A stretch of DNA of 64,000 bases from an uncultured bacterium (GCA_964594545.1 CAZQNB010000001.1:23358-87357), one strand, 5' to 3'; positions 3,001-9,000 are shown, counted from the stretch's first letter. Made by a program: the numbers.

Positions 3001-6000
3001 GAATTTTAGGAATGAGAACCTTCTTTATCTAGGATTTGTCATAGTCTTCTGTAATGTGAAGATGTCGGCAGCTAGAGATTGAGCCGGCACGGATCCAGCC
3101 GTCCGGTTGATTCCAATGAAAGGAGTAATTGCAATTGAAGGAATATTGGTTGTGATTGCTGCTCCTACGGAAACGCCGTCGATTGTTGCAGTGACAGAGT
3201 TTCCGGCGGCATTGATTGATACGACAAGTTTATGCCAGCCTGTTGTGGCTGCAATTGCCGTATTCCGCGTGGTCCAAACGCCTGCATTGCCGCACTCGAA
3301 GAACCAGTTTCCGCTGTTCAATCCGTTTGAATAGGCTAGATAAATTCCGTTCGTCGAGTGAGCCGTTGAAGCTGCCGGTCCTGTAACGTCTCCTATTCCC
3401 GCTCCAAAGAAGTAAGTATTCGTTCCATTTGATAGAGTGTTGATTTTGAAAATCCATGTGAAATCAATCGCTCCTTGTCCAACCACTAAAGGGAAAGAGG
3501 ATATAGCAAGCGATTGACCCATATATAAAACAGCATTTCCAGGGCTTGTTGTCAAAGCCGCTGTTTGAACTGTTCCTGGATGGTTTGCATCAGAGTTGGC
3601 GTTTTGCGCGTTCCATTGGCTATTATTTGTCATCGTCCATGACTGCGCTCCGCTAATAACGGTTCCAGTCACGGACGAGGAGCAAAAATCATCCCAAAGC
3701 TCAACAATTGAAAGAGGATCGAATAATCCCCCTGCATTAACATTAATCGTCGGATTTCCTGCGATGCCGTCGCCGTTCGTGACCGTAACGTTCGGGCCTC
3801 CGACGATTGTTCTGCCAGTCCAGCCGCCTGTTAAGGGATTAAAGACCTGCAATCCTGAAGTTTTTGCATTGGTGGAGTTGTTGCTGCCTGACATATCTTC
3901 AATAAAGTCCGAAAAGATAATCCATGCCTCCAGTTTTATAACATTTGTCAAAAATTTTAAAGTATTTACTCCAAGAGAGTCGATTCTTGGATTATGTGTG
4001 AATGCGGTTTTGAATATTCTGACGATTCAACCAATCCGACCGTCATCGTTTAATTATGGCAGGAAGTGGAAAATTGGATGTCCAGTCATCCATTTTGGCA
4101 GAGGGGAAACAAGACATCCGGCTGTCCGGAAAGCTGGTTGTCCAATAAACCAGTTTGTTGGGAACCCATATACCCAACCAGCTTATTTTAAAAATATTAA
4201 AGAAATAATAAAAAGATCTCTGTTCTGCAGACCGCCAGTCTTATAAAACTAAAAGCCCTTAGGAAAAATGCAGATAGCGACGCTATCTGCATTTTTGCAG
4301 AGCTTAGATTTCATAGTATGTCATATAGACCCATTGCGTTGCCGTCGATGCGTCCGTATTTATGACAATCGAGTCGCCTGAATTCATAGAAGCAGGAACC
4401 GATGGCACGACGACTCCAGAACTGTTCGCCACAGCGGTATTTTGAAAGTATTGATTGGCGGTGCCGCTGGATCCGCCATTTGGAACGTGGTAGACTTTAA
4501 TGCTTCTGCTGGCTCCTGAGAAATTTTTATATATCCCTCCTGATCCGTTTACGTAGGCTCCTCCAAGAGTATCTAAAGTAATAGCCGTTTTTCCCGCGCC
4601 GACGGTGAAAATAGTATTATCTCCTGAAGCTAAACTCAAAAGCCTCGCTGTATAGATTGGAGTGGAAATATCCATTTCCATGATTCTAGCCCAAAGATTT
4701 CCTCCTGGGTTGGAATTCACTGTAAAGGAGAGGCCCTCGCCTGGATTTATTACAATCCCGAATGAATTAGTGGAAACATTCCCCCAGATAGTATTCGGAG
4801 GAGTAAAATTATAATAATTGCCCGAAATTTTTAGCTGAAGCCCTCCTGTCATAATCGGAGAACTGATTCCCATCACTTGAGTGATAAGAGCTTTTTTGCC
4901 TGCAGGGCATGTATAGATATCGACGGTCCCTGATGTATTTCCGGAGAATGCATTAACGAACTTAGCTCCTCTTACTAGAGGGCCGAAACCGCTTATGAAG
5001 CCGACATTATTTATGATATTATTCCCCATTTACAGCTCCATTACGTTGACCCATGCGGTCTGAGTTCCCGTTCCTACGTTTGTATTGACTACGATCGAAT
5101 CGCCTGCGCTTAACATTAAACCGCCGATGAGGCGCGCCGAGGCCGATCCTGTGGTAACAGTTTCCGTTCCCATTTGATTTGCAGATCCAGGCGATCCTCC
5201 GCTTGGAACGCCATACCAAACCAAAGAAGCGCTATTCCCCGAATTGTTGAAGTAGAAAAACTTTTTCAAAGTAAAGTTTGTTTTAAACCATTGATCTAGA
5301 GTGATCGCCTTTTTACCCGAGGGACATGTATAAACAGTGTTGTTTCCGTTTGACATGCTCATAACCTTGCTGCTCTTGATTGGGGCTGTGGTGTCGAATT
5401 CAACAATATTAGCCCAAAGATTCATCCCGGCTTGAGTTGTGTTGACCCCGATTCTTTCTCCAGCCTCTAGAATTATAGCTTGGTTGGTTACTAAAACCTG
5501 TGTTTGCGCTGTTGTGGCCGCGTTTCCAGCCCCTCCGATTCGATAATAAGCGCCGGCGACATAAAGAACTGGAAAAATGGTTGTGGTTGTTCCAGCCGTA
5601 TTGTAGCCGACAATATAACTCACGCATGCTCTTTTTCCGGCAGGGCAGGTATACATATCCACGTTGCTTGCTCCTGCGTTAGAGACGAAGGCTGACGGAA
5701 ATTTTACGCCTGGCAAATACACACCTTCAGGATGATAAATCAGATTGTTCGCATTATTTTGATTAGGCATTTAGATCTCCTGCACTGTGACCCACGCAAA
5801 TTGAGTTGCCGCGGCTGCGTCGGTATTTATTACGATCGAGTCTCCTGCGTTCATGCAATTGCTTACTGATGAATTGGTCATGAAGGAACCATTTGAAACG
5901 GCTTGAGGGGTTGTAGGTAAAAGCATGTTGCTGGTTCCTGGAGAACCGCCGCTTGGAACGTGATAAAGGGAAACGTTTCTGCTTCCTCCGCTATTGTTCC

Positions 6001-9000
6001 AATAGTTAACCGATTTAACTAAGCTGGCTGATAAAGGGCTGAGATTATCGCTTACAAAAATAGCTGTTTTTCCTGAAGGGCAGGTATAAATCGTATTGTT
6101 TCCGCTGCCTAATGAAAGGAGCTTCGCAGTCTTGAAAGGAATATCCGAATCGAACTCCATGATGGAAATCCACACGTTGATTGACGACGTGCTTTGATTG
6201 GTCGAGATCGATTCGCCGGCTTCCAAAACGATGAGATTGACAATACCGCCTGCGCCTACCCCGATGGCTGTGGCTGTTTGAGTAGAATTCAGATTGTAAT
6301 AATTGCCTCCCGATTTGAGCATTGGAGTGATGCTTGCGCTTCCTGAAGGGGAGCAATAGCTTATCCCCATGACGGCTGCTCTTTTTCCTGCGGGGCATGT
6401 ATACCAGTCTACAGTTCCGCTGGCAGCTGGCAATCCTGAAATAGGAATGAAAGCCAATCCTGAAAGCTTATTGGTGTATCCAGCAGACATTGCATATCGG
6501 TTGATGAAATCTTGCACAGGCATATTACACCACCGTTAAGTTGCCGATTCCTGAAAGAACGAGCCAATCTGTATTGGCCGTAATACAAAGCAGGCGGACC
6601 GCATCATACCGTACTGTAGAAGCAACGCTCCCTCCGGCGCCGGATGTTGAGTCCACGCCATCCATGTGGATGATCTGTCCTGAGTTTTGCGCGATCTTCC
6701 ACCCGCCCGCTCCCTTTCCTGCCACTTCGACCACATCTCCGACCGAAGCGCTGGAAGGAAGGGTAACAGTGACGAGGCTCGCATTGTTTGCGATGTATCC
6801 GTTATTCGCAGCAGCTGATTGAGATGTTCCGGAAACTGTATTCCATGCGATGCCTCCGCCCCCGCCTCCGCCTCCAGCCGCCCATTTTACGCCGGATGCT
6901 TGCGTCGAATCCGCTGTTAAAACAAAAGTGTCTGCGCCGATCGATAGGGGGGAGAAGGTCCCGGCGCCCGTACCGATTAGGATTACGCCTTTTGCCGTAT
7001 AGTCTGCGAAACCGATCAGAGTATCTGCTGCTCTATTGGGGAATGTGTAGACTCCAGATCCTGCAAATTGATTGGTGAGGGTATAGTCGCCGTTTCCGTT
7101 GTGGGTGACGGTTCTTTTAGTTATTCCGCCTCCTATGCTGAACCCGACCAATAGATTAGAAATATCAAGATTAACTGCTGAAATGCTGGCCATTTTTTCT
7201 CCTTTTTATTATTCGAAGCACCCCCAAATTGGACTAATTATCACAAAAACCTACGCAGTTTTCTCTTGTGGTTTCTCTTCAGGTTTGTTGCTTAAAGCAT
7301 CCAGCAGCCTTCCCTTCACTCCAGCGTGATCGAATGGAATAAGAGGATCAACCCAGATATCCACTCCGGCTTCTCTCGCTTTACGGCAAAAGACATAGTC
7401 TTCTCCCCAGAATTCTCCTTCCCAAAGTTCTGTATTGAAGAAAAGCCAGCCGTTTTCTTTCTTCATGCTTTCATGTTTCGGCTCGAAATAAAGCTCAGGA
7501 AATTTCTTCATTAACTTTTCAATGACGCTTCTAGTCATCAACATAAAGCCTGCTGGGATGTATTGCATTTTCAATAAGCCATTTTCTTCTACGATCGACG
7601 AGTCATCGTTGTTAAATGTTCTAAAAGTAAATGTTTTACCGTCTCTTCCTGGGTAAACACCTGCTATAAATTCTTTGTCAGCCAGAAGCATCTTAAGAAC
7701 AAACTGAGGAACCCACCCAAGATCGGAATCAATGCATAGCAAATGAGTAGCGTCGCTTTGCATAAATAGCTTTAAGATTCGGTTTCTTTCTGCAACTAAA
7801 AGAGATCCAGAAGTGGTAATATTGTATGCGACTTGAACACCGTTATTTAAAAGAAGCATAGTAGTCTCTGATAAAGCGATCGCATAAGGTACATGAACGC
7901 TTCCGTCGTATGCTGGTGTTGCTATCATTACTTTTTTCATTTTTTTTCCTTGTTCGTGGTTGTTTGTTTTTGTTATTGAGCCTTGATATAAAGGGATCGG
8001 GAAAACATGTTTGCAGGCTCTTGCGTGATTGCCAACTGATTATCCATCGGCAATTGAAATTGAGTGCTAGTCGCATATTGATAATCAGTCGGAGAGGTAT
8101 AAATATATCCACCTTGTCCAACGGTTACAAATTTATTGTTAGCACTTATTACGTCCATAAGAGCAGAAGCATTTGTACTTGAACTAACATTATTATTTTG
8201 AATCCAATTTGTACCGTTTGTTGAAGTGAAAACAGTAGCTCCAATAATATTATTTCCTACAGCAACAAAAAGACCGTTATTAAATGTAACTCCTCTAAAA
8301 GCGGAAGGAAATGGTAAGACAAGTGGTGTTTGAACAGCCCAAGTGATCGCATCGTTCGAAGTCATGAAATTTCCAGCGCTATTTATCGCAACCCAAAGGC
8401 TGTTTCCATAAGTGACCGAATAGTTAAAACTTGAAGTTGGCGTCTGCCGTGCAGTCCAAGTAATCCCGTCTGTCGACGTTCCCATTAAACCGATTCCAGC
8501 AGCATAGACATAGAGGCTGCCGCTATAGGCGAAATCATAGATGTTATTAGGGGAATTACTTATGCGAGTCGTCCAGGTGATAGCATTCGTTGAGGTTTGA
8601 ATACCTCCGTTGAAATATCCAATGACAAATTTGTCAGTGTAAATTGCAGCCTGAACGGAATCCGTGTCATTTAATCCAGGAAAGTTTTTAGTCCAGGTTA
8701 TACCGTCGGTCGAGGTTAAATGCGTGTTTGCTCCGACAGCATGGAATAAAGTTCCATCCCACACAACGCTATTCAAAGCAGAAGTCGTGTTGCTTGTTCT
8801 GGCCGTCCAAGTAATCCCGTCCGTTGAAGTTCTTAAAGAACCACCGGCGCCTACGGCTACAAAGATAGAATTTCCAAAGATCACTGCATTGATTACGCTT
8901 GCTGTCCCGGAAGTTCTAGCCGTCCAAGTGATCGCGTCTGTTGAGGTCGCAACGTTTCCGCCTGATCCTGCATAAAGGTAAACGCTTGCTCCGAAAGTGA

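Follow-up and report, generated by a model that had tools for sequence, protein, structure and literature searches.

Why would the tail module of a phage-like element end in three different versions of one gene, placed back to back? The question is raised by a 64,000-nucleotide stretch of DNA from an uncultured bacterium (GCA_964594545.1, CAZQNB010000001.1:23358-87357), hereafter the window. Its minus strand carries a contractile-tail structural module with three paralogous genes, here called p1, p2 and p3, at the end and a ParA gene next to them. We consider it quite likely that the three products are structural proteins acting as receptor-binding tips. The features on which the argument turns are the following.

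5771-6523, minus strand: p1, 250 residues; begins with the peptide MPVQDFINR, which precedes two beta-sandwich domains homologous to each other (residues 24-125 and 130-250, approximately)
5030-5770, minus strand: p2, 246 residues; paralog of p1 with 38-39% identity
4304-5029, minus strand: p3, 241 residues; 40-44% identity to p1 and 34-35% to p2; closes the cassette
4264-4296, minus strand: intrinsic terminator hairpin with a 15-bp perfect stem and A5/U5 flanks
6525-7193, minus strand: adaptor of 222 residues, with an anchor-like N-terminal region, a poly-Gly linker and a C-terminal "knob" of about 110 residues

A preliminary description of this locus had reported three abutting genes of 241-250 residues spaced by 0-1 nt, and the open reading frames (ORFs) bear this out. 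Both the p1/p2 and the p2/p3 junctions read TAAATG with zero gap, and 1 nt separates p1 from the adaptor gene upstream. The GGAG Shine-Dalgarno sequences of p2 and p3 come from the last codons of the preceding gene (GAG ATC / GAG CTG TAA ATG), lie six bases 5′ of the next start and are supplied by a conserved C-terminal Glu codon. Judged by these junctions, the arrangement looks translationally coupled. The three genes also share one reading frame in the window, with single TAA codons between them. Programmed stop-codon read-through of the trio was considered and rejected: two related loci, L001 and L005, have 1 nt between p2 and p3, and the common frame in the window is therefore probably coincidental.

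The paralogs are 34-44% identical in pairs (blastp bit scores 127-159) and fall into three separate orthologous groups across five related elements, in fixed order within the window's clade. This agrees with the earlier view of the duplication as old. As to whether there was one ancient triplication or several, a neighbour-joining tree and position-specific hidden Markov models (HMMs) give clear p1, p2 and p3 groups only within this clade, and distant trios mostly score best against the p2 profile, whatever the position of the gene.

The trio had also been placed at the end of the fibre operon, just before its terminator. The terminator part holds: the hairpin begins about 8 nt past the p3 stop codon and has a free energy of -27.8 kcal/mol (z = -7.2; 0 of 200 shuffles fold equally well). 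The operon-end part does not hold entirely, as a further fibre-like gene (3025-3951) follows on the same strand about 350 nt on.

What kind of protein do these genes encode? Every motif that had been quoted to define the group (the YTCPAGK / VP.GGS.G..N set) is present in the trio: VD(W/M/I)YTCPAGK(R/K)A, NT(I/V)(Y/F)T(C/V)(P/G)(S/A)GK(T/K)AI, VP(S/N)GGS(P/S)G(T/S)(S/A)N and GDSIV(I/V)NT(D/N). The proposal that each protein consists of two similar halves is also confirmed. When the N-half and C-half profiles of a 62-sequence family alignment were compared with hhalign, they matched with 99% probability (E 4.9e-18, 93 columns), and natural single-domain proteins of 101-114 residues match either half of the family profile.

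The AlphaFold2 model built on the p1 alignment is all-beta (predicted local distance difference score, pLDDT, 83.6; predicted template modelling score, pTM, 0.81). It contains two beta-sandwich domains of about 100 residues each, and the N-terminal 20 or so residues are disordered; p1 itself matches the family profile with E 2.8e-99. The conserved residues of the module are the Gly, Pro, Thr, Tyr, Asn and Asp of turns and strands, and the family alignment holds no conserved His/Glu metal ligands or metal-binding set. The modelling shows the fold class as two duplicated beta-sandwich (jelly-roll/cupin-like) domains.

Among viral models in BFVD, Foldseek matched the module to a 722-residue Caudovirales protein (TMq 0.81), to cyanophage "tail fiber-like" proteins (TMq 0.60-0.65) and, through one domain, to many "virion structural" proteins of about 110 residues (TMt 0.7-0.84). 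Against the PDB it returned only weak two-sandwich matches (template modelling, or TM, scores 0.2-0.42; identity 6-14%), including PHM, bicupins, STIV A223 and XepA; gp37 is absent among the 50 listed PDB fold matches. An enzyme or bicupin identity was rejected, since the TM-scores are low and no catalytic residues are conserved.

The family turned out to be large. A profile search of 1.84 billion representatives recovered 2,595 proteins at E <= 1e-3, of which 790 reach E <= 1e-30, members being counted as 50%-identity clusters. The 90 clusters found in the first protein search are all "hypothetical". The trio proteins have no significant match in Pfam, NCBIfam or PADLOC and only marginal ones in PHROG (E 0.02-0.09); as had been stated before, the motif fits no named family, and none of Pfam, NCBIfam and PADLOC assigns the profile to a known non-structural one. 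A profile search of PDB sequences gave nothing but a chance nanobody match (E 0.29). No match was obtained by megablast of the fibre region or tblastn of p1 against 50,697 phage records, nor by tblastn of p1 against PLSDB, and the PADLOC defence scan was empty. The family occurs in four architectures.

Architecture i: standalone proteins of about 240-270 residues
Architecture ii: C-terminal end of fibre-like proteins of 341-1,403 residues with fibre repeats and "ATKxYVD" motifs
Architecture iii: two or three modules per chain (P0091, P0099, P0092)
Architecture iv: single-domain proteins of about 100 residues in phage tail modules, matching phrog_1276

The fused proteins include L010, L012 and L013 (862-984 residues), P0102 (1,403 residues), P0112 and many more, with the module at the C-terminus; in L010, L012, L013 and P0102 it is the sole globular distal domain seen. 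For the multi-module chains, scans of viral and metagenome contigs for P0091, P0099 and P0092 found nothing, and the context of P0091 was recovered through a protein search and contig look-up. A single-domain homologue, gp22 of Streptomyces phage Caelum, is encoded between the minor tail protein and tail fibre genes. Phages of otherwise unrelated types carry the module among their distal tail genes, and a distal-tail context like that of the window also occurs in loci L001, L072, L073, L079 and L080 and in Caelum.

Some members resemble secreted or membrane-anchored proteins more than fibres, with signal-peptide-like N-terminal segments or membrane anchors (P0092, P0059, P0068, P0069, P0176, L017, L020, L024). 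In P0092, the three modules lead into a long Pro/Thr linker and then a transmembrane region at the C-terminus. Judged by such sequences, some members may use the module as an adhesin on the cell surface.

The gene upstream of the trio offers a clue to how a standalone module might reach the particle. In the AlphaFold2 model of the 222-residue adaptor, the knob (residues 113-222) is predicted at pLDDT of about 95, and the N-terminal half at low confidence. The best PDB matches in Foldseek are residues 1-335 and 1-250 of the CBA120 tailspike TSP4 (7rej/7rfv/7rfo; E 1e-7, probability 1.0, TMq 0.40), with other phage spike and baseplate proteins ranking after them. The N-terminal part of TSP4 (TSP4-N) forms a trimeric hub: it attaches the tailspike complex to the baseplate and helps it to assemble with the three other tailspikes, whose binding is mediated by gp10-like XD domains (PMC8825819). 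As modelled, the 222-residue adaptor resembles this anchor and assembly hub. Three more genes belong to the same setting.

10120-10797, minus strand: second adaptor, a paralog of 225 residues with 65% identity to the 222-residue protein; a different cargo gene follows
7973-10054, minus strand: fibre/propeller-like protein of 693 residues (DUF6242, tail-collar), after the 225-residue adaptor
11358-11960: protein like Gp10_C of T4, encoded nearby

Two or three knob proteins stand in series at several of such loci (L009 5342-7168, L073 4974-6245, L005 2206-7999), and several proteins share the first 52 or so residues of the adaptor (175, 490 and 514 residues in L005). Together these sequence features suggest adaptors docking on adaptors in a multiply branched apparatus.

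How regular is the association of knob and module? We scanned all retrieved loci with HMMs of the module and of the knob at the C-terminus of the 222-residue protein, and grouped them by what the scans recovered.

Knob gene and exactly three standalone modules: window, L064, L001/L068, L005/L065, L006, L007, L069, L009, L072, L073, L079, L080
Knob gene and three modules, by gene lengths only: contig of P0039 (222, then 248/254/248 residues)
Knob gene and two trios (six modules): L066, L067
Knob-ending fibre of 681 residues, two-module fusion (P0091, 528 residues) and one 260-residue module: L076/L077
Three modules in one chain: P0092
Trio without an upstream knob gene: L008 only
Single standalone copy, no knob gene: L003, L021, L022, L027, L028, L078

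A knob-bearing gene lies directly upstream of every trio but that of L008. Family cargo behind a knob gene comes in threes or sixes, the exception being the 2+1 fusion of L076/L077. Many of the counted loci are interrelated, and about 5-6 independent lineages follow this 3n rule (the window clade, L009, L072, L073/L079, L080 and L076). The rule spans different phage types, since L072 and L080 have P22-type portals whereas the element in the window is myovirus-like.

Two chlamydial contigs from metagenome-assembled genomes (MAGs), L066 (5679-10221) and L067 (3942-8484), carry two different trios in tandem with a single knob gene. One of these trios is like that of L007 and the other like that of the window; in L067 the first trio has a truncated third member of 195 residues.

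The proteins encoded right after knob genes have a further feature in common. Regardless of their fold, they start with M-x-x-(Q/N)-N-x-(I/V/A)-N, as the N-termini listed here illustrate.

Trio members: MPVQDFINR, MPNQNNANN, MGNNIINN, MATNNVINN and others
Propeller-like protein of 693 residues: MPKNNSVND
C1q-like proteins of 166 residues: MVQHNSINT
Gly-rich pair of 290 residues in Criblamydia: MVLRNSING, VATNNAING
Knob proteins themselves: [10 protein letters not shown]

In the form M-x(1-4)-[QN]-N-x-[IVA]-N, the motif matches 5 of the 98 window ORFs of at least 100 residues, all of them within 4.3-10.8 kb. The first nine residues of p1 are invariant in nine orthologues that are 65-98% identical overall. 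The peptide may be an address for docking on the adaptor.

Comparison with related elements shows a faster, cassette-wise divergence of the trio sequences relative to the flanking genes. Between the window and L006, the three genes are 64, 64 and 73% identical, forming the most divergent block, as against 96-98% for baseplate and ParA genes. The trio of L005 is 89-92% identical to that of the window, and the best match of the adaptor there reaches 68%. Within each pairwise comparison, all three paralogs are equally diverged. Since they share a level of divergence and differ faster than their flanks, the trio behaves as one exchangeable unit. Strict co-variation of the adaptor with the trio was rejected, as their identities do not track each other.

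What element carries this cassette? The structural module runs through portal, major capsid protein, DUF3383 (sheath-like), Dit-like, hub, gp25-like, baseplate J, DUF2612 and fibre-like genes, and its distal order in the window is baseplate J, DUF2612, fibre-like genes, adaptor and trio. The major capsid protein shows 96% identity to its counterpart on a circular plasmid of 89.5 kb from Criblamydia sequanensis CRIB-18 (L081, NZ_LK031773.1), a plasmid that is syntenic with the window from portal through baseplate and in the 222-residue adaptor, ParA and DnaB. The nearest homologues of the trio occur in MAGs labelled Parachlamydiales, Chlamydiae and Rhabdochlamydiaceae, and a 98%-identical copy in a "Verrucomicrobia" MAG; relatives of the element lie on contigs of 87-98 kb (Parachlamydiales, Rhabdochlamydiaceae and "Verrucomicrobia" MAGs). 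Sequence comparison places the window on a tailed chlamydial phage-plasmid related to the megaplasmid of C. sequanensis.

A "phage group" of genes was noted earlier on the C. sequanensis and P. massiliensis plasmids (PMC7846284). Our literature search found no description of a tailed phage of Chlamydiae or of its receptor-binding proteins. Instead of the trio, the Criblamydia plasmid has a 99-residue gene and two extremely Gly-rich paralogs of 290 residues (65-66% identity) after the 222-residue knob adaptor (L081 12735-15513, which is plasmid 64734-67512).

These observations allow us to propose how the three proteins might work. p1, p2 and p3 would be the distal host-recognition subunits of a contractile-tailed phage-plasmid. 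The module, which in other phages is the C-terminal end of long fibre-like proteins, would here be detached from its shaft, and the short conserved N-terminal peptide would deliver it to the virion by docking on the knob of the upstream adaptor (6525-7193). The three coupled genes would be inherited and exchanged as one cassette, and their products would assemble 1:1:1 into one pseudo-threefold heterotrimer of six beta-sandwich domains. This would take the place of the homotrimer presumed for the fused versions, which we assume to be trimeric by analogy with solved phage fibres, and variable loops would contact the host surface.

We infer the virion location, peptide docking, heterotrimer stoichiometry and receptor binding from several lines of comparison. 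The tip role is favoured because the module forms the C-terminal end of fibre-like proteins, has phage fold relatives, lies in a distal-tail context and diverges fast. For its presence in virions, the one indirect hint is the "virion structural" annotation of the single-domain matches in BFVD. A heterotrimer is suggested by the 3n copy number, translational coupling and inheritance of the cassette as a unit. Evidence of the Rosetta-stone type comes in addition from the 2+1 fusion and the chain of three modules, and the fibre-like proteins in which the module is C-terminal are assumed to be trimers.

The whole of this reading, in which tip subunits for receptor binding dock on a TSP4-N-like adaptor and probably do so as a 1:1:1 heterotrimer, has in our estimate an even chance of being right. 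Co-assembly of p1, p2 and p3 into one heterotrimer, taken by itself, we would put at or just under that level on the comparative evidence. More speculative, and to be held only tentatively, is the strongest version, in which an obligate heterotrimeric, pseudo-hexameric cap (3 x 2 beta-sandwiches) would be plugged into the TSP4-N-like adaptor by a universal address peptide of about nine residues.

Several points count against the proposal. The module has no closely similar solved structure (best PDB TMq 0.42), and the Foldseek TM-score linking the adaptor to TSP4-N is modest (0.40). The trio of L008 has no upstream knob gene, and the L076 lineage lacks the N-terminal motif. The Criblamydia knob gene precedes two Gly-rich cargo genes, not three, which means that "three" is not a property of the adaptor. 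Orthology of p1, p2 and p3 between distant trios is not resolved by the neighbour-joining tree or the HMMs, and the heterotrimer stoichiometry is a prediction from comparative genomics. In addition, "three" could mean three separate receptor-binding proteins, because TSP4-N recruits three separate homotrimeric tailspikes.

The last point leads to the main rival explanation: p1, p2 and p3 might be three independent homotrimeric receptor-binding proteins that sit on copies of the adaptor via their common peptide, giving a branched or mosaic adsorption apparatus with three specificities as in CBA120 or G7C. The resemblance of the adaptor to TSP4-N, a binder of three different homotrimeric tailspikes, speaks for it. 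Each paralog has its own docking-type peptide, like the single-gene cargos (the C1q-like and 693-residue proteins); a paralog identity of only 34-44% is compatible with different ligands, and the two trios of L066 and L067 look like host-range expansion. However, independent receptor-binding proteins predict a variable copy number, and behind a knob gene we found only three or six modules in distinct phage types. The 2+1 gene fusion and the single chain of three modules are hard to match with independence, the three paralogs always change together as one cassette, and the adaptor, with 222 residues, falls far short of the size of TSP4-N335, which has three XD domains. On balance we regard separate homotrimers as unlikely, if still a serious contender.

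A second rival sees the trio as chaperones of fibre assembly, or as adhesins like gp38 of T-even phages, which would help to fold the knob adaptor or a fibre and then leave or stay as tip monomers. The genes do lie directly downstream of a fibre-like gene, the usual position of Tfa/gp38-type genes, and the family also occurs at fibre C-termini, the site of intramolecular chaperones. Nevertheless, the proteins match no chaperone family in Pfam, PHROGs or NCBIfam and no PDB sequence, and their fold is all-beta. Removing the module from L010, L012, L013 or P0102, where no other globular distal domain was seen, would leave no tip. No such gene follows the second knob adaptor (10120-10797), and three different chaperones for one 222-residue protein would be unparsimonious. 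We therefore find this explanation improbable.

A non-virion role, as a cupin-like enzyme or cell-surface cargo in, for example, surface modification or superinfection exclusion, is the least credible of all: it could draw on the weak fold resemblance to bicupins and peptidylglycine monooxygenase, on the signal peptides or membrane anchors of P0059, P0068, P0069, P0092, L017, L020 and L024 and on the L008 trio, which lies away from tail genes beside regulatory genes and ParA, but the conserved residues are of turn and strand types with no conserved His or metal-binding set, TM-scores to enzymes are 0.2-0.42, and the dominant context and architecture are the distal tail module and the fibre C-terminus.

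The preliminary description had interpreted the trio as alternative or co-assembling receptor-binding tips, or as fibre-associated chaperones or adhesins. This is partly supported and, as to the kind of protein, largely right. Co-assembling tips are favoured by the copies in threes or sixes, the coupling, the 2+1 fusion and the three-module chain, and the chaperone part has lost ground with the lack of a chaperone-family match. New beyond that description are the conserved partner gene for a TSP4-N-like adaptor, the N-terminal peptide held in common and the setting on a phage-plasmid of Chlamydiae.

The surroundings of the trio hold other features of interest. Beyond the trio terminator lies the extra fibre-like ORF.

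3025-3951, minus strand: fibre-like ORF of 308 residues; probable start at 3894 (3025-3894), MSGSNNSTNA

Its N-terminus is fibre-like, and it has no match in Pfam, NCBIfam or PDB sequences. Among 11 related loci compared, it is matched only in the near-identical contig L064, and for this reason its sequence may represent a recently acquired extra tip. Between the 693-residue protein and the 222-residue adaptor, a glycosyltransferase-like gene (7251-7940; phrog_1574, E 6e-30; phrog_34859 "glycosyltransferase") was found only in the window, L006 and L064. Its product might glycosylate fibres or the host surface.

Further away, a low-GC block (30000-43700; 36-41% against about 47%) separates the large terminase gene (44344-45693) from the portal gene (28460-29917). 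It contains host-like genes for an AAA ATPase/HTH protein, an MFS transporter, a NorB-type nitric oxide reductase (36691-38997) and a GlgC-like nucleotidyl transferase (39863-41143), and may represent either a cargo island or an insertion into the packaging/head module. At 50118-54514, an Hsp70/MreB-like protein of 824 residues (52040-54514) is overlapped by 4 nt by a 641-residue ORF with no Pfam match. A Cas4/RNase H-like protein of 498 residues is encoded at 55525-57021, and a ParB-N/DNA methylase fusion at 46155-47456.

The group of 2,595 clusters, a probable tail-fibre tip family, has neither a Pfam or NCBIfam entry nor a close solved structure, and host-range prediction tools would overlook it for that reason. 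The rule of threes behind an adaptor and the shared peptide suggest a simple code that pairs an address peptide with a TSP4-N-like knob and might be reusable for the engineering of receptor-binding proteins. Should the full reading be true, it would mean a plug-and-play docking code common to cargo proteins of unrelated folds, and a heterotrimeric receptor-binding protein in a tailed phage, extending a virophage precedent (PMC12724248). The docking system would moreover sit on a phage-plasmid of obligately intracellular Chlamydiae. Because they belong to a phage-plasmid lineage of environmental Chlamydiae, the trio genes are candidates for the recognition of chlamydial cells by a tailed particle.

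How does this arrangement compare with known systems? Bicupins (vicilin, MncA), STIV A223, PHM and PBSX XepA likewise have two beta-sandwich domains per chain, by duplication, and trimers of bicupins and double-jelly-roll proteins form pseudo-hexameric rings. The low TM-scores and identities given above and the lack of metal ligands in the trio mean that this likeness is not evidence of homology. PHROG 1276 is matched by single-domain members of the family with E 2e-9 to 1.5e-5 and by a two-repeat protein with E down to 5e-14. In contrast to them, the trio proteins are tandem duplications with no direct phrog_1276 match, and the function of this PHROG is unassigned.

With regard to oligomeric state, the nearest parallel is the virophage DSLV2, in which three tail proteins from consecutive genes are reported to co-purify as a heterotrimer, in agreement with a 1:1:1 stoichiometry, and cyanophage relatives of these proteins were modelled as homotrimers (PMC12724248). 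The two cases share three consecutive related genes with phage homologues that are single genes modelled as homotrimers. They differ in fold, since the DSLV2 proteins (about 19 kDa each) form a needle-like gp37 tip, and show no sequence relation. DSLV2 also uses a virophage capsid appendage, whereas the apparatus described here would belong to a tailed-phage baseplate and its heterotrimer is putative.

With regard to attachment, the closest models are branched receptor-binding complexes with a gp10-like hub: CBA120 TSP4-N with TSP1-3, G7C gp66/gp63.1 and the "anchor-branch" scheme of Klebsiella phages. As in these, a short adaptor, whose predicted fold matches TSP4-N at a modest TM-score, adjoins several cargo genes, the cargos share a conserved N-terminal element with swapped distal domains, and a T4 gp10_C-like protein is encoded nearby. 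Unlike in these, the adaptor has only 222 residues, cargo of this family comes strictly in threes, and the putative docking element is a peptide motif of about nine residues, not a folded N-terminal domain. The cargo is also unlike beta-helix tailspikes, being a two-beta-sandwich module with only about 20 N-terminal residues. In our reading of these comparisons, the trio is a detachable tail-fibre tip on an anchor-type adaptor, unusual in its conserved triplet organisation and part of a sizeable family named by no database.

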